From Rhizobium sp. Q54 (GTDB lineage: Bacteria > Pseudomonadota > Alphaproteobacteria > SMXQ01): 64,000 bases of DNA. The stretch spans positions 15,585 through 79,584 of the forward strand of contig CAMAVH010000001.1 of the NCBI GenBank assembly GCA_945861615.1. The letters are read 5' to 3'. Every line of letters starts with the position of its first letter. Position 1 is the first letter of the stretch. Position numbers and translations under genes: made by a program. Below the pieces are notes generated by a model. That model worked only from the letters and a program-made list of their open reading frames with translations. It did no database searches and was not told the DNA's origin. Shown in pieces: positions 49,378 through 64,000 of the stretch.

Positions 49378-50022
49378 ATGCCGTCCATCGCCGATTCCCA
49401 GCCGGGCCGCGACTGCCCGCTCTGCCCGCGCCTGCACGCCTTCGTGCAGGGCCAGCGCCAGGAGCATCCCGACTGGCATAACGGCCCGGTGCCCTCCTTC
49501 GGCCCGGCCTCGGCCCGCCTGCTGATCGTCGGCCTGGCGCCCGGCCTACGCGGGGCGAACCGCACGGGCCGGCCCTTCACCGGCGATTACGCCGGCAAGC
49601 TGCTCTACCCGACGCTGATCAAGTTCGGCCTCGCCCAGGGCGAATTCCTCGAGCGGCCCGACGACGGCCTGACGCTGGTGGACACGCGCATCACCAACGG
49701 CGTGCGCTGCGTGCCGCCGCAGAACAAGCCCGAGACGGCCGAGATCAAGACCTGCAACAGCTTCCTCGCCGCCGAGATGGCCGCCATGCCGAAGCTGAAA
49801 GCGATCCTGGCGCTCGGCGGCATCGCTCATCAGGCCGTGCTCGCCGCCTTCGGCCTCAAGCGCGCGCCTTACGCCTTCGGCCATGCCGCGATACACGACC
49901 TGCCGAACGGCATGACGCTGACCAACAGCTATCACTGCTCGCGGCTGAACACGAACACCGGACGGCTGACGACGGCGATGTTCGAAGATGTGGTGAAGGC
50001 GATTAAGGGACGGCTGGATTAA
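49378..50022 (+). CDS. Uracil-DNA glycosylase, family 4/5 type
   Basis: CPLCPRL… with a 4Fe-4S Cys cluster, …LLIVGLAPGLRGANRTGRPFTGDYAG…HCSRLN…. Confidence 0.85.
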   Translation: MPSIADSQPGRDCPLCPRLHAFVQGQRQEHPDWHNGPVPSFGPASARLLIVGLAPGLRGANRTGRPFTGDYAGKLLYPTLIKFGLAQGEFLERPDDGLTLVDTRITNGVRCVPPQNKPETAEIKTCNSFLAAEMAAMPKLKAILALGGIAHQAVLAAFGLKRAPYAFGHAAIHDLPNGMTLTNSYHCSRLNTNTGRLTTAMFEDVVKAIKGRLD

Positions 50023-50035
50023 TTCGAATACAGAT

Positions 50036-50713
50036 TTACCCGTACCGCTGTTCCGTCCACGGATCGCCAACGTTGTGGTAGCCGCGCACTTCCCAATAGC
50101 CCGGTTTGTCGCCTTCTAGGAAGACGATGCGGCGCACCCATTTGGCGCTTTTCCATAAATATAATTTTGGCAGGATGATGCGCACCGGGCCGCCATGTTC
50201 TGTGGTGATCGGCTGGCCCTGCCAGCTATGGGCGATCAGCACATCGTCGTCATCGAAGGACGCGAGCGGCACGTTGGTGGTGTAGCCGTCATGGCTCTCG
50301 AAGACGACATGGGTCGCGGTCGGCTTCGGCTTGACCAGCGCCAGCAGATGCTTGGCCGACACGCCGGTCCAGGTGTTGTCGTAGAGCGACCAGGTGGTGA
50401 CGCAATGGATGTCGGAGACGTCCTCGATCTGCGGCTGGGCCATGAAGTCGGCCCAGTGCCAGACGAGCGGCGCCTCGACCGCGCCCTCGACCTCGAGCTT
50501 CCATTTGTCCTGCGGGATGTTGGGCTGCAGGCCGAGATCGAGCACCGGCCATTTCTCGACCAGGCGCTGGCCCGGCGGCAGGCGCTCTTTATGGCCCGCG
50601 TCAGTCCTGCCGGTGAGATGCTTGCCGGCGGCGGCTTCCGCCTGCTTCTTGCCGATCAGCTTGTCCTTGATCTTGCCGAAGATGCTGATGCCGTCGCCGC
50701 TGTCGTCCGCCAT
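50036..50713 (-). CDS. Sulfite-oxidase-like molybdopterin oxidoreductase domain protein
   Basis: …DIHCVTTWSLYDNTWTGV…ESHDGYTTNVPL…HGGPVRIILPKLYLWKSAKWVRRI matches the Oxidored_molyb domain pattern. Confidence 0.8.
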   Translation of the reverse strand: MADDSGDGISIFGKIKDKLIGKKQAEAAAGKHLTGRTDAGHKERLPPGQRLVEKWPVLDLGLQPNIPQDKWKLEVEGAVEAPLVWHWADFMAQPQIEDVSDIHCVTTWSLYDNTWTGVSAKHLLALVKPKPTATHVVFESHDGYTTNVPLASFDDDDVLIAHSWQGQPITTEHGGPVRIILPKLYLWKSAKWVRRIVFLEGDKPGYWEVRGYHNVGDPWTEQRYG

Positions 50714-50870
50714 GGGCCCCTCCCCGCGTGAGGAGGAAAGTTTAGGACGGGCGAGCGGGTTCGTCCAATGGCGGGATAAGCGCCCAGAATCACCAAAACG
50801 TCATGCTCGGGCTTGACCCGAGCATCCATGTTTCAGACGCCTGAGCGCCGGAGGAATGGACCCTCGGGTC

Positions 50871-50992
50871 AAGCCCGAGGGTGACGAATTGGATGTTGTC
50901 ACGCCCGAGGGTGACGGTTTGGGGCGTGGTAAAGCCCGAGGGTGACGAGTTTGGATGCGGCAAAGCCCGAGAGTGACGATTTGGGCGAGCGC
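50871..50992. repeat. Tandem repeat of about 30-31 bp x4 (consensus about cAAGCCCGAGGGTGACGAnTTGGrtGnGg), preceded by two related hairpins (50806-50830; 50860-50886)
   Basis: Units are at 50871-50900, 50901-50931, 50932-50961 and 50962-50992. The upstream palindromes are GCTCGGGCTTGACCCGAGC and CCCTCGGGTCAAGCCCGAGGG. The array is intergenic between the molybdopterin oxidoreductase gene and smpB. Confidence 0.7.
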
Positions 50993-51465
50993 TAGCCCTT
51001 GGCCCTCAGCGTGCGCTGTTTCTCGCGGTTCCAGTCGCGCTGCTTGATCGTCTCGCGCTTGTCGTGCTGCTTCTTGCCCTTGGCGAGGCCGAGCTGGACC
51101 TTGGCCATGCCGCGCGGGTTGAAATAGATCATCAGCGGCACGGCGGTCATGCCCTCGCGGCTGATCGCGCCGAGGATCTTGGCGACTTCGCGCGCTTTGA
51201 GCAGCAATTTCCGCGGCCGCTTCGGCTCGTGGTTGTTGCGGTTGCCGTGGCGGTATTCGGGGATGTGCGAATTGAGCAGCCACAACTCGCCGTTCTGCTC
51301 GGCGGCATAGGCGTCGTTGAGGTTTGCCTGGCCGGCGCGCAGGGATTTCACCTCGGTGCCGAGCAGCATGAGGCCGGCCTCCATCGTCTCTTCGATGAAG
51401 TAGTTGTGCCGCGCCTTGCGGTTCTGGGCCGCGATGCGGTCCGGGCTGATCTCGCCCTTCGCCAT
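50992..51465 (-). CDS. smpB: SsrA-binding protein
   Basis: …[28 protein letters not shown]…. Confidence 0.95.
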
Positions 51466-51488
51466 GGTCGCGGTCCCTTTCCTCCACC

Positions 51489-52364
51489 CTACTTCGTCAA
51501 GCCGACATGCTTGAGCGCGGCGCGCACAGCGGCCTTCGAGGTTTCGGCGATCTCGCAGAGCGGCAGACGCAGCTCATCCGAGCACAGGCCCATCAGGCCG
51601 GCGGCATATTTCACCGGGCCGGGGCTCGATTCGATGAACATGGCGTCATGCAGCGGCATCAACAGATCGTTGATCTTGTAGGCCGCCGCATAGTCGCCAC
51701 GGCCCCAAGCGTTCTGCAAATCGGCGCAGAGGCGCGGCGCCACGTTCGAGGTGACGGAGATGCAGCCGTGGCCGCCCTGCGCCAGGAACGGGATCGCCGT
51801 CGCGTCCTCGCCCGAGAGCTGGCAGAACTTATCGTCGATGGCGAGGCGCGTCTTGACCGGGCGCACCAGGTCGGCGGTCGCGTCCTTGACGCCGACGATA
51901 TTCGGATGCTTGGCGAGCTTCGCCATCGTCTCGGTCGTCATGTTGATGATCGAGCGCGCCGGGATGTTGTAGATGATGATCGGCAGGTCGACGGCGTCGG
52001 CGATCGCCATGTAATGGCGATAGAGGCCTTCCTGCGTCGGCTTGTTGTAATAGGGCGTGACATGCAGCGCCGCGTCGGCGCCCGCCTTCTTGGCATGCTG
52101 CGTCAGCGAGATCGCCTCGTCGGTCGAGTTCGAGCCGGCGCCGGCGATGACGAAGGCGCGGCCCTTGGCCACCTCGATGCAGAGTTCCACCACGCGGTGG
52201 TGCTCGTCATGGCTCAGGGTCGGCGATTCGCCGGTGGTGCCGCAGGGCACGAGGCCGTGGGTGCCTTCCTTGATCTGCCAGTCGACGAACGACTGGTAGG
52301 CCTTCTCGTCCACTTTCCCACCCTTGAACGGCGTGAGAAGAGCGGTGATAGACCCCTTGAACAT
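51489..52364 (-). CDS. dapA: 4-hydroxy-tetrahydrodipicolinate synthase
   Basis: [14 protein letters not shown]…GTTGESPTL…[14 protein letters not shown]…. Confidence 0.95.
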
Positions 52365-52664
52365 GATCGGCTCCGATGCGGCTGGATAGGAATGCGAACG
52401 GCGAGCTTATACGAAAGTCTGCCTGGTCGCGGACGGGCCGAACCATAGACGCCCCGATCCTTTGCCGCAAGGCACAGGGCCGCATACGTTCCTAGCCCGA
52501 CGTATAAGAAAAACGCCTTGTGCGACCGAGGCTTGGCGCTGGCGGCGGAGGCGCTTACAATGGGCACATATCAAGAACCGCCGCCGCGCGCGACCGTCGC
52601 CCCCCTCGAAGGGAGCCCATCGCGCCAGGCGGCCAAAGGACCGGGTCCGGCTTTGACGATTCGC

Positions 52665-54653
52665 ATGCTTCGCGCGGCCTTGATCGCCGCGACCCTGGGC
52701 GCCGCTTTGCTGCCCGGCCTGACGCCCGCCGCCTTGGCACAGTCGGCGGCCGAGAAATCCGCCGCGCCGCAGCTGCTCGCCGCCGCCGAGCGGCGCGCCT
52801 GGGCCGACGCGCGCAACATCGCCGCCGCCGCGCGCTCGCCGCTGCTCGCCAAACTCGCCGCCTGGCTCGAATATACGACGCCGGGCACCCGCGCCTCGTT
52901 CGACGAAATCGCCGCCTTCATCAAGGCCAACCCGGAATGGCCGCAGCAGGCCATCCTGCGCCGCGCCGCCGAAGAGGCGATGACCGCCGACATCTCCGAG
53001 CGCACGGTGCTCGCCTGGTTCGCCGAGGGCGAGCCGCGCAGCACCCAGGGCCGCATGCGGCTGATCGTCGCGCTTCAGAACAGCGGCCGCCATGAAGAGG
53101 CCGTCGCCTATATCCGCAAGACCTGGATCGAGAGCAACTTCGGCACCGACCAGGAGCGCGAGTTCCTGAAACTTCACGGCGGCCAGCTGCGCAAACAAGA
53201 ACATCAGGCGCGCGTCGATCGCCTGCTGTGGGACGGGCGCGGCGCCGAGGCCCAACGCATCCTCAAACGTCTCGACAATGGCTATCAGCTCGTCGCTCAG
53301 GCGCGCATCCAATTGCGCGGCATGGGCAGCGGCGTCGAAGCGGCCATCCGCAAGGTGCCGAAAGAACTGCTGAACGATCCGGGACTGATCTACGAGCGGG
53401 TGCGCTGGCGCCGCCGCAAGGAGCTCGACGTCGAAGCGCGCCAGCTTCTGATGAATCCGCCGAAGGAACTGGTGCGGCCCGACGCCTGGTGGAGCGAGCG
53501 CGCCATCCTCGCGCGCCGCGCCCTGCGCACCGGCGAGGCGAGCGTCGCCTACGATCTCGTCGGCAAGCAGAGCATGGCGAGCGGCGTAGCGCTGGCCGAA
53601 TCGGAATGGCTCGCCGGCTGGATCTCGCTGCGCTTCCTCGGCAATCCGCAGCGCGCCTACACGCATTTCGTCCGGCTCCATGAAAACGTGCGCTTCCCCG
53701 TGTCGCTGGCGCGCGGCGCCTATTGGGCGGCCCGCGCCGCCGAGGCCAAGGGCGACAGCAAGCTGGCGCTGCAGTGGTATTCCAAGGCGGCGACCCATGT
53801 GACCAGCTTCTACGGCCAACTCGCCGCCGTTCATCTGCGCGACGAGATCGGCGCCCTGCTGCCGACCGATCCCAAGCCGTCGCCCGACCTGCGCAAGGCC
53901 TTCAACGAGCGCGAACTGGTCAAGGCCTCGCGGCTCGTCGCCGGTTCGCGCGACCGCCGCATGCTGCGCGTCTTCTCGCTCGCCCTGGTCGAGCAGGTGC
54001 ACAGCGCCGAGGAGCAGGAACTGGTCACAGAACTGGCCGGCGAACTGGGCCGCCCCGATCTCGCCGTCACCGCCGCCAAATTCGCCGTGCGGCGCGGCGT
54101 GCAGCTCGTCTCCACCGGCTATCCGGTCAAAGGCGTGCCGATCCGCGACGCCAACGGCGTTGAGCGCGAGCTGCTGCTCGGCCTGATGCGCCAGGAAAGC
54201 GCCTTCGACGTCGAGGCGATCAGCCCGGCCGGGGCGCGCGGCCTGATGCAGATCATGCCTTCGACCGCCAAGGGCCTCGCCAAGCAGACCGGCCTGCCCT
54301 ACGCCGTCGAACGGCTCACCGGCGACGCCGACTACAACGTCGCGCTCGGCAGCCGCTATCTGCGCGACCTGATCAACGACTTCAGCGGCTCCTACGTCAT
54401 GGCCATCGCCGGCTACAACGCCGGGCCGGGCCGCGTACGCGCCTGGATCCGGGCCTATGGCGATCCGCGCGCCGGCGCGCTCGACATCATCGACTGGATC
54501 GAGCTGATCCCGTTCGACGAGACGCGCGACTATGTCCATCGCGTGCTGGAGAACACCCAGGTCTATCGCACCCGGCTGGCGGGCGGAAAGCCGGTGACGC
54601 TGACCCTGCGCGACGATCTCGACCGGCCGCGCAGCATGATCGCCAAGCGCTGA
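52665..54653 (+). CDS. Soluble lytic murein transglycosylase (Slt family)
   Basis: Signal peptide MLRAALIAATLGAALLPGLTPAALAQS, a superhelical N-terminal domain and a C-terminal SLT catalytic domain (LLLGLMRQESAFDVEAISPAGARGLMQIMPSTA…AGYNAGPGRVRAW). An alternative start is at 52560. Confidence 0.9.
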   Translation: MLRAALIAATLGAALLPGLTPAALAQSAAEKSAAPQLLAAAERRAWADARNIAAAARSPLLAKLAAWLEYTTPGTRASFDEIAAFIKANPEWPQQAILRRAAEEAMTADISERTVLAWFAEGEPRSTQGRMRLIVALQNSGRHEEAVAYIRKTWIESNFGTDQEREFLKLHGGQLRKQEHQARVDRLLWDGRGAEAQRILKRLDNGYQLVAQARIQLRGMGSGVEAAIRKVPKELLNDPGLIYERVRWRRRKELDVEARQLLMNPPKELVRPDAWWSERAILARRALRTGEASVAYDLVGKQSMASGVALAESEWLAGWISLRFLGNPQRAYTHFVRLHENVRFPVSLARGAYWAARAAEAKGDSKLALQWYSKAATHVTSFYGQLAAVHLRDEIGALLPTDPKPSPDLRKAFNERELVKASRLVAGSRDRRMLRVFSLALVEQVHSAEEQELVTELAGELGRPDLAVTAAKFAVRRGVQLVSTGYPVKGVPIRDANGVERELLLGLMRQESAFDVEAISPAGARGLMQIMPSTAKGLAKQTGLPYAVERLTGDADYNVALGSRYLRDLINDFSGSYVMAIAGYNAGPGRVRAWIRAYGDPRAGALDIIDWIELIPFDETRDYVHRVLENTQVYRTRLAGGKPVTLTLRDDLDRPRSMIAKR

Positions 54654-54681
54654 GCGCCATTCGCCGCGCAAAGAAAAAGGG

Positions 54682-54710
54682 CGACGCCATGGCGTCGCCC
54701 TTTCGCATTC
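54682..54710. terminator. Bidirectional rho-independent terminator between the convergent slt and tctC-like genes
   Basis: AAAAAGGGCGACGCC-atg-GCGTCGCCCTTTCG. Confidence 0.6.
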
Positions 54711-54723
54711 GCTCGAGGTTCGC

Positions 54724-55758
54724 TTACTCGACGAGCGCCTTGGCCCGCGCCACTAGCGGCGCCGGCGTGGCGATCAGCTTGGCGGCCAGGGTCTGCATCG
54801 ATTCGCCGGCGATCGGCGAAATCTCGACCTTCAGCTTGCCGGCCTCGCCGAGCAGTTCGGGATCCTTGGTCATCGCCACGAAGGCCGCGCGCATCGCCTT
54901 GACGCGGTCGGCCGGCACGCCCGGACCCATGGCGAAGGGCCGGCCGAACTCGGCGCCGGAGAAGACCAAGTTCATCACCTGGATATCGTCGGGATTTTTC
55001 ACCAGCTCGGCCATCGACGGCACGCCGTCCGGCATGTCCTTGGGCTTGGGGCCGGCGTACATCAGCACGACGAACTGGCCGTTCTTGATCCAATCCATGC
55101 GCGAGGTCACCCAACTCGCCCAGCTGGTGGCGCGCGCGCCGACTTCGCCGCGCTCCATGGCGGTGTTCATGTCCGGCGAGCCGCTGTAGCCGGTGATGAC
55201 CTTGAACTTGGTGCCGAGCAGCGCGTTCATCGTTTCCGCGATATAGCTCGAATTTGCGCCCTTGCCGGTGGCCGCGGCGGCGATGGTCTTCTTTTTGGCG
55301 TCCTCGATCGTCTTGACGTTCTCAGTGTGCCAGACGCCCATCGATTCGACGGCGGGCGATAAGGAGCCGACCCACTGGAACTTCGAGGCGTCGAACTGCA
55401 CGCCTTGCGCGCGGATGGCGTGAACCATGGCGACGGAGTTCATCAACAAACCGAGATTGCTGCCGTCTTGCGGAAGGCTGTTGTAGATCGCGTTGGCGAC
55501 GCGGATGCCGCCGGCGCCGGGCATATTCTGCGGCACGACGCGCGGGGCGCCGGGCAGGTGCTTGCCGATATGGCGACCGACGAGACGACCTTCGAAGTCG
55601 TAGCCGCTGCCTGCCGCCGTGGCGATCATCACGTTGACGGTGGCGCTTTTATAGAAGTCGGCTGCCGATTGCGCGAGCGCCGGCACCGGCGCGGCGAGCG
55701 GCGCGACGGCGCATGCCGTGGCAAAAAGGGCCGTTTTGAAAGAAATACGAGAGGTCAT
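54724..55758 (-). CDS. Orphan tripartite tricarboxylate transporter substrate-binding protein (TctC/Bug family)
   Basis: Signal peptide plus SAADFYKSATVNVMIATAAGSGYDFEGRLVGRHIGKHLPG…NMPGAGGIRVANAIY…DG(S/Y)…L, the Bug-family N-terminal consensus. It is paralogous to the tctC at the window end. Confidence 0.75.
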   Translation of the reverse strand: MTSRISFKTALFATACAVAPLAAPVPALAQSAADFYKSATVNVMIATAAGSGYDFEGRLVGRHIGKHLPGAPRVVPQNMPGAGGIRVANAIYNSLPQDGSNLGLLMNSVAMVHAIRAQGVQFDASKFQWVGSLSPAVESMGVWHTENVKTIEDAKKKTIAAAATGKGANSSYIAETMNALLGTKFKVITGYSGSPDMNTAMERGEVGARATSWASWVTSRMDWIKNGQFVVLMYAGPKPKDMPDGVPSMAELVKNPDDIQVMNLVFSGAEFGRPFAMGPGVPADRVKAMRAAFVAMTKDPELLGEAGKLKVEISPIAGESMQTLAAKLIATPAPLVARAKALVE

Positions 55759-55914
55759 CGATTGCTCCTACAAGTCAGACAGCGCCAGGGGGCGGCGTTG
55801 CCCTTAAAGATGCAATGTTCAGGCCAGCGAGGCTCAGGCCCCCAAACGAAGACCATCGCAACTCTATCCAGCGAAATGAATCGCGCCCAGCGAAACAGCT
55901 GGGCGCGCGTTGTT

Positions 55915-56418
55915 TCACGCGGCGGTCGCTTCGCGCGGCTGGGGCGATTCGCCCTCGGCCGCCTGGCTGTCCGCGGCGGGCGCCTCGACATCGGACGGCG
56001 AGTCGCCATCGACTGTCGCGTCGGGTTGATCCTCGACCACAGTGGCCACGGCGAGATGCCGGCAATGGCCTTCGAGGAACGCGCCGGATTCGATGATCAG
56101 ATTGCTGTGCACGACGTCGCCGACGACGCGCGCGCTGGCGCCGAGCACGACGTTCTCCGCCGTGATCTGGCCGTTGACCTGGCCTTGGATATAGACGCTG
56201 TCGGCCTCGATCGAACCGTTCACCGCCGCGCCCTGGCTGATCGTCAAGGTGCGGCTTTTGACGTCGCCATCGACGATACCGTCGACCTGCACGTCGCCGG
56301 CGCTGACCAGATTGCCGACGATGCGCAAGCTGGCGCTGATGATCGAGGGCACTTGCTTGCGCGCGTCCGCCTTCGGGGCCGCCACGTCGCCGTTGGACTT
56401 CTTAGCCTTTGAAAACAT
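55915..56418 (-). CDS. Bactofilin-family cytoskeletal protein
   Basis: …SIISASLRIVGNLVSAGDVQVDGIVDGDVKSRTLTISQGAAVNGSIEADSVYIQGQVNGQITAENVVLGASARVVGDVV… shows DUF583 beta-helical repeats with an acidic tail. Confidence 0.85.
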   Translation of the reverse strand: MFSKAKKSNGDVAAPKADARKQVPSIISASLRIVGNLVSAGDVQVDGIVDGDVKSRTLTISQGAAVNGSIEADSVYIQGQVNGQITAENVVLGASARVVGDVVHSNLIIESGAFLEGHCRHLAVATVVEDQPDATVDGDSPSDVEAPAADSQAAEGESPQPREATAA

Positions 56419-57733
56419 GACGTCCTGCCTGGATGAATTTCATGGGATCGACGGGCTTGCCGTTCACCTGGATTTCGTAATGCACATGCACGCCGGTGGC
56501 CCGTCCGGTCTGGCCCATCAGGCCGATCTTCTGACGGATGCCGACGGTTTGCCCCTTCTGCACCAGCGTGCTGCTGAGGTGGCCGTAGCGCGTGATGATG
56601 CCCATGCCATGGTCGATGTCGATCGACAGGCCGTAATCGCCGTTGCGACCGACCGCGACGACGGTGCCGGGGCCGGTGCTGAAGATCGGCGATTTCATCT
56701 GGCCGGTCAGATCGACGCCGTAATGCACCGCCCATTCGCCGTTGAACGGATCCTTGCGGCGGCCGAACGCGCTCATCACCGTGAAATTGTCCGTCGGCGC
56801 GGCGAGCGGCAGGCGGCGGACGATGAGCTGCAGGTCGTCCCAGCGGTCGATGTGGTTGTTGAGCGCGACGAAGGACGCGTCCGGCGACAGGTCGGCGCCG
56901 GGCGCCGGCTTGCCCTTGGTCGCCGGCTTCGCCTTGGCGAGCGGCGCGGCGACGAACGGGCCGCCGATCCCGCCCTGCGGATTGATGCGCGCCAACAGGC
57001 GCTCGGGATCGAGCCCGGTCATGCCGATGATCTCGCGCGCTTCCTCGATGCTGCCGGCGGTGCGCGCCGCCAGCTTGTCGAGCACCTTCTTCTGCGCCAG
57101 TTGAAGATCGACCAGACGCTGCTCCAATTCGCCGGCGCGCGCCTGCAAGCGGCCGTGCTCCTGCAAAGCGCGGGCGCGCTCGGCCAGCGCCACCTGCAGT
57201 TCGCCGCTGCGCGCGTCGAGCGAGCCGAGCAGGCGATCCTTCTCGTTCGCCGTGTCGCGCAGAGAATCCTCGAGCTGGCGCATTTGCGAGCGCAGCGCCT
57301 CGCGCGAGGCGAGAATGCGTCCGCGCTCGGCTTCGCTGGTGTCGAGCTCGCCGCGCACCTGATTCAGACTTTGCTTGAGAGTGCCGTTCTGCTCGAGCAC
57401 GCCGAGCAGATAGGCATGCTTGGCTTCGAGGCTTTGGGTGATCAGCTTGTAGCGAATCTCGGCGTCGGTCGATTCCGACTGCAGCGCGCGGTAGGCCTGC
57501 TTCATGCGGCCGATTTCGGCGTTCTTCGCGGAAATGATGGTGTCATGGAAGACCTGTTCGGCGGTGGTGTAGGCGAACCAGCCGAGCACGCCCAGCACGA
57601 CGGCGACGATGCCGAGCTGCGCATTGCGGCCAAGGCGCAGGAAGCGTACGCGGCCGTTGCTTCGAAGGAGGATTTCCCGTTCGGGGAAGGCACGCACGAA
57701 AGCCCGCCCCACGGCTACCGCCGCGGCCCGCAT
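56402..57733 (-). CDS. M23-family (LytM-type) metallopeptidase with an N-terminal TM anchor and a long coiled-coil
   Basis: TM LGIVAVVLGVLGWFAYTTA, an extended coiled-coil, and a C-terminal M23 domain (HYGVDLTGQ…GLSIDIDHGMGIITRYGHLSS…GQTGRATGVHVHYEI). It overlaps the bactofilin gene by 17 nt. Start at the internal ATG 57733. Confidence 0.85.
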   Translation of the reverse strand: MRAAAVAVGRAFVRAFPEREILLRSNGRVRFLRLGRNAQLGIVAVVLGVLGWFAYTTAEQVFHDTIISAKNAEIGRMKQAYRALQSESTDAEIRYKLITQSLEAKHAYLLGVLEQNGTLKQSLNQVRGELDTSEAERGRILASREALRSQMRQLEDSLRDTANEKDRLLGSLDARSGELQVALAERARALQEHGRLQARAGELEQRLVDLQLAQKKVLDKLAARTAGSIEEAREIIGMTGLDPERLLARINPQGGIGGPFVAAPLAKAKPATKGKPAPGADLSPDASFVALNNHIDRWDDLQLIVRRLPLAAPTDNFTVMSAFGRRKDPFNGEWAVHYGVDLTGQMKSPIFSTGPGTVVAVGRNGDYGLSIDIDHGMGIITRYGHLSSTLVQKGQTVGIRQKIGLMGQTGRATGVHVHYEIQVNGKPVDPMKFIQAGRHVFKG

Positions 57734-58133
57734 CGCGCTCTTCACACGTCCGCTCTTCCCCGCGGACACGAAAGACCAGGTGGCTCCTGGTGACTGCAAG
57801 ACTTCCCCGTCTCGGTCGTGGCTGTGATGACCCCCACTCGAGCCGGGCGCGCACCTCATGTGCCCGCCCTGAAGCGATCCCCGCGTCGCGCGTTGCCGGC
57901 ACCTTCCCCGTGCCTGCCTCACGTTCCCCGCCGCGCGGATCGCGGCCCTCGTAAAAGCCGCGACTGTCCGTCCCGACGACGCCCGAAGGGTCGCCGCAAC
58001 CGACCGGGAGACCGTAACGAATCAAAGACGACTCTTTCAAGCGCTTTGACTCGCCTGTCATCTCGCTGAAATGAATAGATAAATCTCGAATTGTCGGAAT
58101 CGGGCGGTGACGCCGGAACCTTTGCCTTAAAAA

Positions 58134-59474
58134 TCAGCGCCCTAGCGAACTGCTCTCAGAATAAGCATTGGGATTGCGCCAGACGTACCAAGCCATCCAG
58201 ATCACGATGATCAAAAGGATAGCTCCGATCAGCAGGAAACTGCTGGTCAGGCCCGACAGCTCCACCACCGCGCCCATCAGCAGCGGCACCACCAGAGAGG
58301 AGACCCGATTGACCGTGGTGCGCAGCCCGACGCTCAACCCCTGCTGGTCGCGGCTCACCGCCTTCGACAACAACGACAGCAGCGTCGGGAAACACAGGCC
58401 GATGCTGACGCCGTAGCCGATGGCGCAGGCCATGAGCGGCCAGAAGCTCGTCATCAGCGGCGTGACCGAGATGAACAAAATGCTGAAGCCGGTGCCGACG
58501 ATCATCAGCCAAGCCGGCTTGATCCAGCGTTTGGGCAGGTTGATCAGCGCCGCCGGGCCGGCGATCAGGTTGGCGCAGGACACCAAGAGGCCGATCGCCG
58601 TGCCCGACATATCGATCTGCTCGAGATAGACGATGTAGAACGAGGTCTGCATGCCGTACACGGCGATCCTCATGAAGGTGAAGATCATCACCAGGCCGAT
58701 CACCGGCACGGCGCAGAGGGCCAGGGCGCGCAGGTAATCGGCGCCGCGCGGCACTAAGTCCATGATGCGGAGCGGCTTGGCCGGCGGGTCGATGTCGCGC
58801 GGCAGCACGATCACCAGGATCAGCGTCGCCAGAGACCAGAAGGCCAGCGCGGCGAAGGCGCCGATCGCCCCGACATGATCCCACAGGACGCCGCCGAGCA
58901 ACGGGCCGGCGAACATGCCGAAATTCGTGAAGAAAGTGACCCAGCCGGCATGTTTGACGCTGCCGCGCGCCAGCTGGCCGTAGAGCGTTTGCGAGCCGAT
59001 CCAGGTCAGCCCTTGGGTCAGGCCGGTGATCAGCTGCAGCAGGATCAGAGCCCACACCCAAGGCATCGCCGGATAGAGCGGAAAGAGCGCCAGCGTGATG
59101 ACGGAAAAGAACAGCATGATCCGGCGCGTACCCAGCCGGTCCATCAGCACGCCGCCATGGACCGACAGGAACATCGGCAAAAAGGACCGCGCGGCGACGA
59201 TGATGCCGATCCACAAGGGCGAGGCGCCGAGTTGGAGCGCCCACAGCGAGACGACCACGGCGGACATCGGCACGGTGCTCAAGCTGAAGAACGAGGTGCC
59301 GTAGATGCCGATCAGAACGCGCAACGAAGACGACGCCGGGGACGCGGGAGGTATCGCGGGCGGTTTGGCGCCGCCGGCGTCGGGGGATGTGGACATGAAA
59401 CCGAGGATCAGAGGTGACGGTCGGTCCCGCGGGTCGCGCAGGACGCGCGCGGCAGGCCAATTCGACAGGATCAC
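58134..59474 (-). CDS. MFS transporter
   Basis: 446 aa with 12 TM helices. Confidence 0.8.
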   Translation of the reverse strand: MILSNWPAARVLRDPRDRPSPLILGFMSTSPDAGGAKPPAIPPASPASSSLRVLIGIYGTSFFSLSTVPMSAVVVSLWALQLGASPLWIGIIVAARSFLPMFLSVHGGVLMDRLGTRRIMLFFSVITLALFPLYPAMPWVWALILLQLITGLTQGLTWIGSQTLYGQLARGSVKHAGWVTFFTNFGMFAGPLLGGVLWDHVGAIGAFAALAFWSLATLILVIVLPRDIDPPAKPLRIMDLVPRGADYLRALALCAVPVIGLVMIFTFMRIAVYGMQTSFYIVYLEQIDMSGTAIGLLVSCANLIAGPAALINLPKRWIKPAWLMIVGTGFSILFISVTPLMTSFWPLMACAIGYGVSIGLCFPTLLSLLSKAVSRDQQGLSVGLRTTVNRVSSLVVPLLMGAVVELSGLTSSFLLIGAILLIIVIWMAWYVWRNPNAYSESSSLGR

Positions 59475-59675
59475 CGCTACTTAGCGCATCGCTCGCGGTC
59501 GGTAAGCCTATTTTTCACTCATCCCGCAGTGCGGAACGGCCTGCCGGGCCCCGAAACCCATGGCAGAGCGAAAACGAATGGGCTATGACTTTGGCGTTTA
59601 TAAACAGGGTTTTTGCTCGGCATTTCCGACCGAGACGCAGGCCCTGACCATCTCATTCGTTAGGAGTGCGCCGAT

Positions 59676-60278
59676 ATGGCAGACGACGTCCTTAAGGACA
59701 CTGAAACAGATACCTTTATTAAGCCGGGCGAAGTCGGCCACAACCAGGGCAAGGAAGTGGTGTGGGAGCGCTGGCAGAAGAAGCGCACCTTCGTCCGCGC
59801 CCTCGAAGGCACCTACGGCGAAGTCTACAAGAGCCTGTTCACCCAGCCGCGCGTCTATTCCACGACGGACTGGAAGTGGAAGGGCGGCCCGCACAACTAC
59901 GGCAAGAAGATCATCAATCCGCAGTCCGTGGAGATCGCCCAGTCGATCGAATGCCATGTCGATTGCTACGCGCCGGGCGGCCATGGCCAGAAGCACGGCC
60001 ACATGAACTCCGCGGTGTTCTTCGTCCTCAAGGGCAAGGGCTACGACATTCATGACACCGTGAAGCTGCCGTGGGAAGCCGGCGACGCCTGCATCGTCGA
60101 GAACGGCTGCGTCCACCAGCACTTCAACGCCGATCCCGATAACGAGGGCATCGTGCTGATCATGAAGGCGAAGCCCCTCTTCCTCTTCATGCACATGATC
60201 TTCCAGAAGATGGTCGAGTACCCGCCGACGACTCCTCCGCCGGGCCAGGAAAACTACAAGCCGCCGACCAATCTCTAA
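59676..60278 (+). CDS. Cupin-domain metalloprotein (paralog 1)
   Basis: Motif 1 GGHGQKHGHMNSAVFFVLKGKG and motif 2 GDACIVENGCVHQHFN (G-x2-H-x3-N) match the two-motif cupin signature. The tail is Pro-rich. Confidence 0.7.
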   Translation: MADDVLKDTETDTFIKPGEVGHNQGKEVVWERWQKKRTFVRALEGTYGEVYKSLFTQPRVYSTTDWKWKGGPHNYGKKIINPQSVEIAQSIECHVDCYAPGGHGQKHGHMNSAVFFVLKGKGYDIHDTVKLPWEAGDACIVENGCVHQHFNADPDNEGIVLIMKAKPLFLFMHMIFQKMVEYPPTTPPPGQENYKPPTNL

Positions 60279-60354
60279 TCGGCAGGCCTTTAGCTATCCA
60301 CCATTCATCGGGCGCGTCGAGATACGCCGCCCGCGCTAGGAAGAGAGATTTCAT

Positions 60355-60900
60355 ATGTACGCTGACGAGAAAGCCAAGGCGAAGTCCAATATCTTCTGCA
60401 ATTACTATGCAGAAGGTCTTGCCGAGTCCGCCGCGTTCCGCAAGGACTACAAAGACAACTACCGGAAGGTCATCAAGGCGCACGAGATGCCGATGGAGCG
60501 CTCGCCCGACGGCCTGATCAAGCACATCATCCATGAGAAGATGAAGACGACGGAGATGTGCATCGACGTCTACATGCAGTTCCTCGAAGGCGGCCAGTCG
60601 ACCGGCAAGACCCGCCACCTGACGGAAGAGATCATGTTCGTCGTCGAGGGCAAGGGCTACGACCTGCACTGGGACGTCGAGTTCGACTGTAAGGACAAGT
60701 TCGAATGGGAATGGGCCGCGACGCCCAAGAAATTCGAATGGAAGGAAGGCGACTTCCTCTACATCCCGCCATATGTCGCGCATCAGCGCTTCAACGCCGA
60801 TCCGAAGAACGAGGCGCGCGTCGTCGTGATCAACAGCCGCATCGTCAAGAAGATGGGCTTCGACTGGTTCGAGCAGATCGAGAACGCCGAGGGCTTCTAA
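60355..60900 (+). CDS. Cupin-domain protein (paralog 2, with a partly degenerate metal site)
   Basis: It is homologous to the upstream gene (MFVVEGKGYDLHWDV versus FFVLKGKGYDIHDTV; PPYVAHQRFNADPKNE versus NGCVHQHFNADPDNE), but motif 1 keeps only one His (GKTRHLTEE). Confidence 0.7.
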   Translation: MYADEKAKAKSNIFCNYYAEGLAESAAFRKDYKDNYRKVIKAHEMPMERSPDGLIKHIIHEKMKTTEMCIDVYMQFLEGGQSTGKTRHLTEEIMFVVEGKGYDLHWDVEFDCKDKFEWEWAATPKKFEWKEGDFLYIPPYVAHQRFNADPKNEARVVVINSRIVKKMGFDWFEQIENAEGF

Positions 60901-60933
60901 CCTTCGGGCTATTGCGAAAAGATCGCAAAATCA

Positions 60934-60965
60934 GGGGCTTCCGGATCATCCGGGGGCCCCTTTTT
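60934..60965 (+). terminator. Rho-independent terminator after the cupin pair
   Basis: GGGGCTTCCGG-atcat-CCGGGGGCCCC followed by TTTTTGTTT: an 11-bp stem with two G-U pairs and a T-tract. Confidence 0.7.
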
Positions 60966-61265
60966 GTTTCGCTTGGCGGATTCGCAGCTTTGCAAGGCCA
61001 GAACTGTTTCATAAGATAGCACTCTGCAAACCGGCATAATGATAGCCGCAATAGATGACAATGCGCGTCGGCGGTTACGGCCCGCCGGCTCAAAAAGAAT
61101 TAAAAGACGCCCCTTCTCAATCGGGCGTCATGACAGAGAAGTTTTAAAACCGGTGGCGATCGCGCATGCCGGTCGTAACGTTAGGGAAGATATTTTGACC
61201 CCCATGAATAGAGATGCCTGGGCCTGCAATGCCTGCGGCTGGTTTACCCATCGGAGCGCCACGCG

Positions 61266-62780
61266 ATGATGGACACCATGTTCTCCTCGCTATTCACGCT
61301 GCTCAGCACCGGCCATCTGATGTTCCTGATGTGCGTCGGCGTGCTGATCGGCATCTTCGTCGGCATCACGCCAGGCATTGGTGGACGCCTGTCCATCGCG
61401 CTCGCTATTCCCTTCGTGTTCGGCATGGACATGGTGGCCGGCGCCGTACTGCTTCTGGTCATGCATGCGGTCAACGGCACCAGCGGTCAAATTTCGTCGA
61501 TCATGTTCGGCGTGCCCGGCGACGGCGACGACGCCGCCACGACAATCGATGGCTATCCGATGGCAAAAAAGGGCGAAGCGGGCCGCGCGCTCGGCGCCAG
61601 CATGACGGCCTCCGGCGTCGGCGGCATCATCGGCGCCGGCGTCTTCGCCGTCATGATCCCGGTGCTCGAACCGGTGGTGCTGTCATTCAGTCCGGCTGAG
61701 TTCTTCCTGCTCGCCCTGCTCGGCATCACCTTCATCGCCGTGCTCGCCGGCGGGAAAGATTTCCTCAAGGGCATCATCGTCGGCTTCTACGGCATGATGC
61801 TGGCAACCATCGGCATGGACCCGAGCACGGGCACCTCGCGCTATGCGGGAAACTTCCTGTTTCTTTGGGACGGCCTGAGCTTGGTCACTGCCGTGCTCGC
61901 CCTGTTCGCCGTGCCGGAGATGATCGCCCTGGCCGTCAAGGGCGGCTCGATCGCCGCGGTTGGCGACAGCAAGGTACGTTTCACCTACCGGCAGATTTTT
62001 GACGGCGTGATGGAAGTGCCACGCAACTGGTGGCTGGCGCTCCGCACCTCGATCATCGGCGCGCTGATCGGCATGATCCCCGGCCTCGGCGGCTCCGCCG
62101 CGGCCTGGATTTGTTACGGCCACGCCGTACAGACATCCAAGACGCCCGAGATGTTCGGCAAGGGCGCCGTACAGGGCGTCATCGCTCCGGAAACCGCCAG
62201 CAACGCCAAGGAAGGCGGCTCGCTGCTGCCAACCCTTTTCTTCGGCATCCCCGGCTCGTCGGGCATGGCCGTGCTGATGGGCGCCTTTCTCATCCTCGGC
62301 ATCCAGCCCGGTCCGACGCTGATCACCAATAACATGAGCCTCGTCTGGACGCTGATCTGGGCGCTCGTCGTCGGCAACGTCATCGCTGTCTGCTTCCTGC
62401 TCTTCGTCGCCCGCTGGGTCGCGCTGCTGACCTTCGTAAAGGGCAATCTGATCGTGCCTTTCATCCTGGTGATGACGGTGTTCGGCGCCTACATCAACGA
62501 AAGCCAGTGGGAAAACTTGGTGATCCTGGTCATTCTCAGCGCCATCGGCTACGGCCTCTTGCGCTTCGGCTGGCCGCGCGCGCCCTTTGTTATCGGCTTG
62601 GTGCTCGGGCATATCGCCGAGGAATCGCTCAACAAGGCCCTGGCGCTGTGGGGCATGAGCTTCTTCACGCGTCCGCTGTCCATGGTGTTGATCGGCCTCA
62701 TCGTCCTGACCATCGGTTACGCGATCTACAAGAACCGTAAGCCGACCAATGCTCCGTCGGAGGCCAGCCTCTATGAGTAA
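61266..62780 (+). CDS. tctA: Tripartite tricarboxylate transporter permease TctA
   Basis: 504 aa, highly hydrophobic, with duplicated TctA halves (…GITPGIGGRLSIALAIPFVFGM… and …GMIPGLGGSAAAWICYG…). Confidence 0.9.
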   Translation: MMDTMFSSLFTLLSTGHLMFLMCVGVLIGIFVGITPGIGGRLSIALAIPFVFGMDMVAGAVLLLVMHAVNGTSGQISSIMFGVPGDGDDAATTIDGYPMAKKGEAGRALGASMTASGVGGIIGAGVFAVMIPVLEPVVLSFSPAEFFLLALLGITFIAVLAGGKDFLKGIIVGFYGMMLATIGMDPSTGTSRYAGNFLFLWDGLSLVTAVLALFAVPEMIALAVKGGSIAAVGDSKVRFTYRQIFDGVMEVPRNWWLALRTSIIGALIGMIPGLGGSAAAWICYGHAVQTSKTPEMFGKGAVQGVIAPETASNAKEGGSLLPTLFFGIPGSSGMAVLMGAFLILGIQPGPTLITNNMSLVWTLIWALVVGNVIAVCFLLFVARWVALLTFVKGNLIVPFILVMTVFGAYINESQWENLVILVILSAIGYGLLRFGWPRAPFVIGLVLGHIAEESLNKALALWGMSFFTRPLSMVLIGLIVLTIGYAIYKNRKPTNAPSEASLYE

Positions 62781-63366
62781 CGCGATCATGAAAAACGCCG
62801 GCGGCAAAATCTTCATGAATCTGGTGATGCTGGCCATCTTCGCCGTGATGGTCGGCATGGCCACGCAATATCCGCCGCAGGCCCGCTTCATGCCTTTCGT
62901 CGTCGGCATTCCCGGCCTCGTCATGTGCCTGATTCAGCTTGTCTTGGAAATCCGCAATGCCCGCGGCGGTGCCACGGACGAAGAGGACGGCAAGAGCGAG
63001 ATGAGGAAAGCCGAAGCCGAAGTCGCCCGCATCACCGGACGCAAGATGGACTTCCGCGAGGCCGAGGGGGCCGCCGCCATGGTCGTCGAAGACTCGCGCG
63101 AAGGCCGCGGCCGCCGCGAGGTCATCATGTGGGCATCCTTCCTGGCGCTGATCGCAGGCATTCTACTATTCGGTTTCTGGATATCCGCACCGCTCTTCAT
63201 CCTGATGTTTCTACGCTTCTACGCAGGGCGGACTTGGCGCTTCTCGCTGTTGTTGACCGTGATCGCAACGACGATCTTCTATTGCGCCTTCGTGCTCGGC
63301 TTGAAGGTGATCCTGCATGAGGGTTTCATCGTCGAAGCGATCAAAGAACATTTCGGTATGTATTGA
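62773..63366 (+). CDS. tctB: Tripartite tricarboxylate transporter TctB-family small membrane protein
   Basis: About 197 aa with four hydrophobic helices. The start ATG at 62773 overlaps the tctA stop. It has an unusually long charged central loop (…RNARGGATDEEDGKSEMRKAEAEVARITGRKMDFREAEG…). Confidence 0.65.
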   Translation: MSNAIMKNAGGKIFMNLVMLAIFAVMVGMATQYPPQARFMPFVVGIPGLVMCLIQLVLEIRNARGGATDEEDGKSEMRKAEAEVARITGRKMDFREAEGAAAMVVEDSREGRGRREVIMWASFLALIAGILLFGFWISAPLFILMFLRFYAGRTWRFSLLLTVIATTIFYCAFVLGLKVILHEGFIVEAIKEHFGMY

Positions 63367-63423
63367 ACCATTCACGGCATAACGGCAGATCAACTGCCGC
63401 AACATTTCAACAGGAGGATGACA

Positions 63424-64000
63424 ATGGATAAAATGACATCACACGCAGTCTTGGGTTTCGGCCTCGCCGCCGCCGCGCTCGCAGGTTTGGCAGCCCCCGC
63501 CTCCGCCCAGTCGGGCAAGGATTTCTTCAAGGGCAAGACCGTTACCTATATCGTCTCCACCGCTGCCGGCGGCGGTTACGACTTCTATGGTCGCCTCGTC
63601 GCCGAAGCGATGCAGAAACACCTGCCCGGCTCAACCTTCGTCGTCCGCAACATGCCGGGCGCCGGCCATATCATCGGTACCAACGCCATCTACGCCTCGC
63701 GCGCCGATGGCCTGACCCTCGGCACCTTCAATACCGGGCTGATCTATAATCAGTTGGTCGGTCTCGACGGCATCCGCTTCGATCTCACCAAGATGTCCTG
63801 GATCGGCAAGGCCGCTTCGGACCCGCGCGTATTCGTCATCAGCCAGTCCTCGCCGATCAAAACCTTCGAAGACCTCCGCAAGTCGCCCCAGGTGAACTTC
63901 GCAGCCTCCGGCATCGGCAGCGCATCCTATGTCGAAACGAAGATGCTCGCCGACGCTCTCAACCTGCCAATCAAGATCATCAACGGCTACAACGGTACCG
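63424..64000 (+). CDS. tctC: Tripartite tricarboxylate transporter substrate-binding protein TctC (Bug family); 3' end beyond the window
   Basis: Signal peptide MDKMTSHAVLGFGLAAAALAGLAAPASAQ, then SGKDFFKGKTVTYIVSTAAGGGYDFYGRLVAEAMQKHLPG…NMPGAGHIIGTNAIYASRADGLTL. Confidence 0.8.
   Translation, partial: MDKMTSHAVLGFGLAAAALAGLAAPASAQSGKDFFKGKTVTYIVSTAAGGGYDFYGRLVAEAMQKHLPGSTFVVRNMPGAGHIIGTNAIYASRADGLTLGTFNTGLIYNQLVGLDGIRFDLTKMSWIGKAASDPRVFVISQSSPIKTFEDLRKSPQVNFAASGIGSASYVETKMLADALNLPIKIINGYNGT

Follow-up and report, generated by a model that had tools for sequence, protein, structure and literature searches.

In a 64,000-nucleotide stretch of the genome of Rhizobium sp. Q54 (contig CAMAVH010000001.1, positions 15,585 to 79,584; hereafter the window), two adjacent, co-oriented genes, here called cupA and cupB, encode the cupin proteins A and B. 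On balance, we favored the reading that cupAB specifies a split-bicupin, hetero-oligomeric metalloenzyme with a cognate importer, encoded at a native locus and representing a widespread family. Pfam, NCBIfam, PDB, and the literature that was searched yielded no characterized member of this family. The two open reading frames (ORFs) of 200 and 181 aa reported by a first-pass annotation of this DNA were present exactly where it had placed them, and its claim that their products are paralogous in the cupin barrel with divergent N-termini was borne out: BLASTP aligned A and B over 113 aa of the barrel with 27% identity (E = 4e-13), and the N-terminal regions were unalignable. Both proteins scored above the Pfam Cupin_2 (PF07883) cut-off of 27.2 bits (37.2 bits for A and 28.9 bits for B) and are thus members of the superfamily.

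The pairing of the two genes was conserved over long evolutionary distances. At 90% identity, the cupA family fell into 1,242 clusters. It was present in at least 492 species-level genomes, with Saccharospirillum alexandrii, Reinekea forsetii, and Marinobacter among its cultured carriers, and identity between members from Alpha-, Beta-, and Gammaproteobacteria and other metagenome-assembled genomes (MAGs) was typically 65-80%. For neighborhood counts, all ORFs from ~83 distinct loci (numbered L001 onward where one has to be named) were clustered, and residue and co-evolution counts were taken from 67 A-B pairs. In 67-68 of the ~83 loci (~80%), cupB lay directly after cupA on the same strand, with a median gap of 29 nt between the two ORFs over the 67 pairs; the genes travel together, mostly in the company of Tct transporter genes. 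The distance matrices of A and B were correlated with r = 0.92, a value that 0/999 Mantel permutations reached, and B was the faster-evolving protein (mean distance 0.34 vs 0.26 for A). An exhaustive profile search also recovered natural fusions: at least four divergent single chains of 351-384 aa joined an A-like N-terminal half (36-46% identity) to a B-like C-terminal half (36-45% identity), the order being that of the gene pair, and four more chains had the same A-B arrangement at lower identity. In monomer models built with AlphaFold2, the overall predicted local distance difference test score was low (61.6 and 65.4) and reached blockwise means of ~75-93 in the barrel cores; fold matching was therefore restricted to the barrel level. 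These models left the conserved N- and C-terminal extensions of A and B unplaced, as would be expected for inter-subunit segments. The co-evolution, the fusions, and the unplaced extensions, taken together, make a split bicupin the most economical reading, and A and B are very likely the two halves of one heteromer. From adjacency, co-evolution, and fusion we infer a physical complex, which strengthens the earlier suggestion that the pair forms a heteromeric cupin.

The remaining loci lacked B: seven carried two or three tandem A-type paralogs, and approximately eight carried a solo A. Because A occurs without B in these ~15 loci, we regarded A as the core, constant subunit. Two of the variant loci (L049, 10001-11826; L067, 9971-11805) held three tandem A-type paralogs that all kept the QKHGH and VHQH motifs. 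Triple-A loci occurred in genomes that also bear a canonical A-B pair, as with L012 and L067, which lie on the same contig.

Both subunits showed conserved candidate metal ligands, in two different sets. In A, the 3-His set H107, H109, and H147 was present in 67/67 pairs, with Ala113 in place of the motif-1 Glu; H94, Q105, N111, H126, E142, H149, and H173 were further invariant residues in a 42-sequence alignment. In B, the 2-His-1-Glu set H88/E92/H143 was present in 67/67 pairs, and Q75 in 65/67. The metal-site asymmetry proposed in the first-pass annotation is therefore real: A has H107-x-H109 plus H147, and B retains only H88 of the motif-1 His pair, but the metal site of B is not lost. The annotation's division of labor between a catalytic subunit and a structural or regulatory one agreed with our findings insofar as A, solo or in tandem, is the constant subunit, but the role given to B is not established; the residues of B do not suggest a vestigial domain, and B is not clearly an inactive partner. 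The A (3-His) and B (His/Glu/His) sets are both candidate metal sites.

Two types of B were distinguished by the perfectly coupled positions 86 and 145, type I with S/T/Q86 and R145 and type II with H86 and H145; position 86 was His in 19-20/67 pairs, and the B of the window is type I (T86, R145). Two cupAB pairs in one locus, each beside Tct genes, were seen in L085 and L086 (Marinobacter MAGs) and in L079. In each of these double-pair loci, one pair had a type I B (S86/R145) and the other a type II B (H86/H145), and this co-occurrence in the same genome suggests different substrate specificities within the family.

The pair was also linked to a transporter. The first-pass annotation had called cupAB isolated, a description that we abandoned: tctA, tctB, and tctC, encoding a tripartite tricarboxylate-type (TTT) transporter, lie downstream of cupB, and TctC/A/B genes adjoin cupAB in the majority of the loci, as they do in the window. 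TTT systems import carboxylates. Judging from this conserved linkage, tctABC is most likely the functionally linked partner and cognate carboxylate importer of cupAB. In a relative that is 97-98% identical (L087), tctC encodes 409 aa and is followed by two genes of the ornithine cyclodeaminase (OCD)/mu-crystallin family, the first of which had a Δ1-pyrroline-2-carboxylate reductase as its best match (E = 1.4e-31). The conserved cluster thus appears to be cupAB-tctABC, continuing with two OCD-family genes in the lineage of the window. These two imine-reductase-like proteins are the only enzymatic neighbors in that lineage, which hints at a nitrogen-containing product. In other genomes, catabolic genes surrounded cupAB, with LysR or IclR regulators encoded separately, and the recurrent neighbors were LigXa-like Rieske oxygenases, Mo-hydroxylase subunits, PhtC-like (Aldolase_II) and PhtD-like decarboxylases, and a bicupin resembling gentisate 1,2-dioxygenase (GDO); UbiD decarboxylases and a NicX-family gene flanked the fused A-B forms. 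Such a set is typical of aromatic or N-heteroaromatic acid catabolism.

Comparison with known cupins pointed in the same general direction. Third-class cupin dioxygenases carry 3-His or 2-His-1-Glu iron sites and occur as monocupins, as bicupins with one or two metal centers, or as heterotetramers of two cupin subunits (PMC10306065). For both subunits, the best PDB sequence match was the gentisate 1,2-dioxygenase 3bu7 (E = 7e-9 and 4e-7). The fold matches of both were generic cupins, with auxin-binding protein 1 on top and including gentisate, salicylate, and 5-nitrosalicylate dioxygenases; hydroquinone dioxygenase small subunits (for B), DddK, KdgF, TM1459, and phosphoglucose isomerase were also among them. 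By these matches, the cupAB family appears to be distantly related to the third-class ring-cleaving dioxygenases of the gentisate/salicylate/5-nitrosalicylate kind. The models for named enzymes scored low: against gentisate 1,2-dioxygenase TIGR02272 (cut-off 442 bits), A reached 15 bits and B had no match at E <= 1, and against the 5-aminosalicylate 1,2-dioxygenase MabB NF049978 (cut-off 650 bits), A and B reached 34.7 and 20.1 bits. The earlier statement that the pair could not be assigned to a characterized cupin enzyme is consistent with these NCBIfam scores; cupAB fits the third-class cupin dioxygenases in general character, without assignment to any named family.

The closest relatives are of the gentisate/salicylate type. 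Like these, A has the HxH...HxH pattern and the 3-His site, and the A and B barrels together correspond to one bicupin, with metal in both domains in 3bu7 (PMC10306065). In salicylate 1,2-dioxygenase (SDO), Gln108 and Arg127 are substrate-binding/catalytic residues, and Gln108 binds the carboxylate (PMC10306065). With SDO and GDO positions taken from the 3bu7 alignment register, the carboxylate-binding Gln was found in B (Q75, 65/67), whereas A has D/E at this position (position 96, 67/67); the Arg127 position is F in A (F115, 67/67) and A, F, L, or M in B. The substrates of this class, hydroxylated aromatic carboxylates, would fit TTT uptake. Unlike cupAB, with its two ORFs (200 and 181 aa) lying 76 bp apart, these enzymes are single-chain bicupins of ~340-390 aa; moreover, B has a Glu ligand (2-His-1-Glu) in place of a 3-His site, and A and B carry distinct, strongly conserved N- and C-terminal extensions. 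A more distant fused relative, an uncharacterized ~378-aa bicupin with 27-31% identity, lies beside cupAB in 34 loci of other genomes; A best matches its C-domain and B its N-domain, an order opposite to that of cupAB, and none is present in the window.

In architecture, the closest counterparts are the two-subunit hydroquinone 1,2-dioxygenases (PnpCD, HqdAB). The likeness is one of architecture only: these have no PDB sequence match at E <= 1, and the identity at the fold level is 11-12%. Their small subunits have ~160-167 residues in the fold-search table, and the cupAB subunits are similar in size (200 and 181 aa). The large subunit of PnpCD or HqdAB is roughly twice the size of the small one. 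In these enzymes, the known precedent for a hetero-oligomeric ring-cleaving dioxygenase, two different cupin subunits are encoded by adjacent genes, and a functional metal site is present in one subunit only (PMC10306065); A and B both keep conserved candidate ligand sets. The 5-nitrosalicylate 1,2-dioxygenase (8ch4), a top fold match for A and B, is a monocupin of similar size with a 3-His iron site, and a long N-terminal extension holds its subunits together (PMC10306065), in which respect cupAB, also with terminal extensions, resembles it; unlike cupAB, it is a homotetramer of one gene product, and it shows no sequence similarity at E <= 1.

Two other leads were tried and rejected. A pyruvic-oxime dioxygenase/heterotrophic nitrification role was considered because of the Aldolase_II neighbors, but the pod and podh clusters have no cupin pair (PMC8629993); and the "two cupin" proteins found with TctC in the mercaptosuccinate/thiol dioxygenase system of Advenella are unrelated single cysteine-dioxygenase-type cupins (PMC5373536). 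The searched literature contained zero occurrences of heteromeric or heterodimeric cupin wording and nothing relevant on a cupin together with a TTT transporter and ring cleavage or pyridine.

For the chemistry, we tentatively infer, at a little short of an even chance, an oxygenase acting on an aromatic or heteroaromatic hydroxy-carboxylate. In the proposed scheme, TctABC would import a carboxylate, which a cytoplasmic A/B complex would bind at a mononuclear metal site, the candidates being the 3-His site in A and the His/Glu/His site with the carboxylate-binding Gln in B. The complex would most likely use O2 to cleave or oxidize a hydroxylated (hetero)aromatic or similar carboxylate; in the lineage of the window, the two downstream OCD-family imine-reductase-like enzymes might then process a nitrogen-containing product.

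Several observations weigh against this proposal. With A present in ~15 loci without B, B is not obligatory for the family. All hidden Markov model scores for named dioxygenases fell far below the cut-offs (15-35 bits vs 442-650). The equivalents of Gln108 and Arg127 are missing in A, and that of Arg127 also in B, so that the chemistry may differ from gentisate-type cleavage. The aromatic-catabolism neighbors were seen in other genomes and not in the window, where no metal-module (see below), bicupin, Rieske, EutA-like, or PhtD-like genes were present within the 64 kb. Similarity of TctC to a terephthalate-binding protein and to BugD (E = 1e-9 to 1e-14) was too weak to name the ligand. Finally, a gene module that encodes a NiCoT-like transporter and a small His-rich protein, and that accompanies cupAB in many genomes, might indicate a metal other than iron, such as Ni or Co, and a chemistry other than oxygenation.

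In many genomes this module and cupAB form one co-oriented, closely spaced string of genes. The string runs from the gene for a NiCoT-like membrane protein, which has an HX4DH motif and a His-rich loop, through those for an Aldolase_II protein, for a small protein that we call MCGD, and for two ArsP-like half-permeases to cupA, cupB, TctC, TctA, and TctB. The MCGD family, with 834 clusters, is Cys/His-rich and has neither a Pfam domain nor a name; its members start with MCG[D/E], have an acidic and His-rich N-terminus, share an ARLAGFLA motif, and in many cases carry a poly-His/Asp tail at the end. In 34 loci, the MCGD gene was the immediate neighbor of the pair, either just before cupA or just after cupB, as a rule together with the NiCoT-like gene and the two half-permease genes, and in some genomes the variant with the poly-His/Asp tail directly followed cupB. 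From these features, MCGD looks like a metallochaperone and the module like a metal-delivery set. Residue 86 of B showed no association with the module, which accompanied 31/48 S/T/Q pairs and 10/19 H pairs.

The module thus brings in a minor but real possibility, namely that cupAB is a cupin enzyme that does not use O2 (an isomerase, decarboxylase, lyase, or hydrolase) and that acts on the imported carboxylate, perhaps with Ni, Co, or Mn that a transporter and a chaperone of its own provide. The lack of Gln108 and Arg127 equivalents in A and the presence of DddK, KdgF, TM1459, and phosphoglucose isomerase among the fold matches would agree with such a function. However, the module is missing from the window and from about half of the loci, and the proteins that it serves could instead be the Aldolase_II or bicupin proteins encoded nearby; in sequence, A and B come closest to gentisate-type dioxygenase domains, and 3-His sites that lack a carboxylate ligand are characteristic of O2-activating cupins (PMC10306065). 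A bolder and unlikely version would make cupAB the core of an undescribed system in which a non-iron metal (Ni, Co, or another), delivered by the NiCoT-like importer, the two half-permeases, and the MCGD chaperone, supports a new reaction on an abundant environmental carboxylate, such as an N-heteroaromatic or methylated acid, taken up through the TTT transporter in soil and marine Proteobacteria; the window copy would then be streamlined and would obtain its metal from elsewhere in the genome.

The first-pass annotation had viewed the pair as a horizontally acquired two-gene unit. Its observations on composition were accurate: the overall GC content of cupAB is 58.1% vs 64.7% for the window, which puts it among the lowest 1.3% of windows of its size, and the pair is Lys-rich (9.0% in A and 11.0% in B vs 4.2 ± 2.2% for window genes). 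However, GC at codon position 3 (GC3) was 0.86 for cupA and 0.87 for cupB vs 0.84 ± 0.034 over 58 mapped window genes, and the deficit was located at codon position 2 (0.36 and 0.31 vs 0.475 ± 0.07). Since the deficit lies in position 2 and GC3 is host-like, the low GC follows from amino-acid composition, which is constrained and has high shares of Lys, Asp, Glu, Phe, and Tyr, and not from a foreign origin. Compared with L001, cupAB was the most conserved DNA of the neighborhood (~86% identity vs 65-75% for the flanking genes), and its composition therefore appears to be under strong constraint. The contig concerned, JBLNCI010000026.1 (L001/L011), is labeled Gemmatimonas sp. and has the whole order bactofilin, M23 peptidase, MFS, cupAB, tctAB(C) as in the window; the taxonomic bin label may be wrong for that contig.

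Over window positions 50,000-64,000, collinearity extended to several alphaproteobacterial MAG contigs whose nucleotide identity was no more than 80-85%. No tRNAs, insertion sequence-like repeats, or flanking direct repeats were found around cupAB, the only notable direct repeats at the locus being the paralogous cupA/cupB coding segments themselves, and no cupAB orthologue was found among 72,556 plasmids. Because GC3 is host-like and collinearity persists at this level of divergence, there is no sign of recent transfer, and we hold with good confidence that none has occurred. On these comparisons, cupAB appears to have been vertically inherited within the alphaproteobacterial lineage, as a native, old resident and not a foreign island. 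Thus, it is improbable that cupAB is an isolated, acquired two-gene unit in which A is catalytic and B, lacking a functional metal site, plays a structural or regulatory part. The low overall GC, together with the upstream region and terminator that the pair has of its own, would suit acquisition; the lack of the first motif-1 His in the B of the window (T86), the existence of A without B in some genomes, which makes A the core subunit, and the hydroquinone 1,2-dioxygenases, with a metal site in one of two subunits only (PMC10306065), would suit an inactive B. Against acquisition stand the position-2 deficit under host-like GC3, the synteny at 80-85% identity, the lack of mobility marks and plasmid orthologues, and the retained tctABC linkage; against an inactive B stand the conservation of H88/E92/H143 in every pair and of Q75 in nearly all, and the His at position 86 in 19-20 of them.

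We also consider it improbable that A and B are separate homo-oligomeric enzymes that catalyze successive steps of a pathway and are adjacent only through a shared operon. The complete candidate metal sites in both proteins, the loci with A and no B, and the homotetrameric nature of the monocupin 5-nitrosalicylate dioxygenase (PMC10306065) are compatible with two enzymes, but natural A-B fusions in a fixed order like that of known bicupins, the tight co-evolution (r = 0.92), the strict adjacency and order across phyla, and the conserved extensions left unplaced in the monomer models argue for one complex. A role for the pair in ligand binding or regulation and not in catalysis, such as sensing on behalf of the transporter, is very improbable, since metal-ligand residues occur in every pair along with many other conserved polar residues, a Pfam scan of A and B found no DNA-binding or signaling domain, and elsewhere the pair sits among catabolic enzymes with regulators of their own, even though auxin-binding protein 1 is the top fold match of both subunits and no regulator gene adjoins cupAB in the window.

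The features of the locus are listed in table 1. In the window, cupAB appears to be transcribed as a separate unit that ends at a conserved terminator. The terminator noted in the first-pass annotation was confirmed as a hairpin with a 13-bp stem containing 9 G·C pairs, followed by a T-run, with a predicted free energy of -26.6 kcal/mol; it was kept with compensatory changes in L007-L010 and L001. No terminator-like site was found on the + strand in the cupA-cupB spacer. The private promoter region of about 200 bp, also noted there, has a counterpart in the 201-bp upstream intergenic region, but a consensus scan found no sigma-70-type promoter upstream of cupA, such a scan being uninformative for organisms of this kind. 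The last ~125 bp of the region were kept as conserved blocks in five syntenic relatives. It includes a perfect 10-bp palindrome, GTTTATAAAC, which was exact in L007 and L010 and one base off in L008 and L009 and may be an operator; no regulator gene adjoins it in the window. A further palindrome, TTGCGA-N5-TCGCAA, lies directly before the terminator hairpin and was kept in L007-L010; it could form a second hairpin or be bound by a protein in front of the promoter region of tctA. Among known RNA elements, the intergenic regions gave only a sub-threshold small RNA match overlapping the terminator (16 bits vs a gathering score of 39).

Table 1. Coordinates and descriptions of features at the cupAB locus, in window positions unless another locus is named
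Feature	Position	Strand	Description
cupA	59676-60278	+	200 aa; monocupin, constant subunit; Pfam Cupin_2
cupB	60355-60900	+	181 aa; monocupin, partner subunit, type I; Pfam Cupin_2
cupA-cupB spacer	60279-60354	+	76 bp; purine-rich ribosome-binding site
cupA upstream intergenic region	59475-59675	+	201 bp; common to the divergent MFS gene
Palindrome GTTTATAAAC	59596-59605		candidate operator in the cupA upstream region
Ribosome-binding site of cupA	59662-59666		AGGAG
Small palindrome and terminator region	60912-60970	+	palindrome 60912-60928, then hairpin 60933-60961 and T-run
tctA	61266-62780	+	large membrane subunit, TTT transporter; Pfam TctA, E = 1e-118
tctB	62749-63366	+	small membrane subunit, TTT transporter; Pfam TctB, E = 5e-12
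tctC	63418-64000	+	periplasmic solute-binding subunit, truncated by window edge; Pfam TctC, E = 3.9e-11
MFS (major facilitator superfamily) transporter gene	58134-59474	-	EntS/Tet-like; divergent from cupA
Second TctC-like gene	54724-55758	-	divergent solute-binding gene, ~4 kb upstream of the pair
Antisense ORF opposite cupA	59598-60194	-	198 aa; shadow ORF
Antisense ORF overlapping cupA and cupB	60187-60783	-	198 aa; shadow ORF
MCGD genes in other genomes (examples)	L002 6422-6787; L053 8316-8675; L030 11329-11766		outside the window

Among the neighboring features, the divergent MFS gene is probably a variable neighbor outside the cupAB unit. It showed a presence/absence polymorphism in close relatives, being deleted in L007, whose cupA is 98% identical to that of the window, present as fragments in L008, and intact in L010 and L001. 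The second, divergent TctC-like gene scored 21 bits against a Pfam cut-off of 27 and occupied the same relative position in close relatives. Shadow ORFs similar to the two antisense ORFs were found opposite cupAB in 77 loci; they are a by-product of the high GC3 of the coding strand and not genes.

Taken together, the annotation of the window should be corrected to a cupAB-tctABC unit that is native to the genome and not a foreign island. More broadly, the family, which is large (more than 1,200 clusters at 90% identity; at least 492 species-level genomes) and unusually conserved (65-80% identity across classes), has no studied member. If the proposal is true, a split bicupin with two different conserved ligand sets would be a second heteromeric type of cupin oxygenase beside the hydroquinone dioxygenases. 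The linkage of cupAB to TTT systems could also give largely orphan importers a substrate, and could reveal how a carboxylate that is common in soil or the sea is catabolized.

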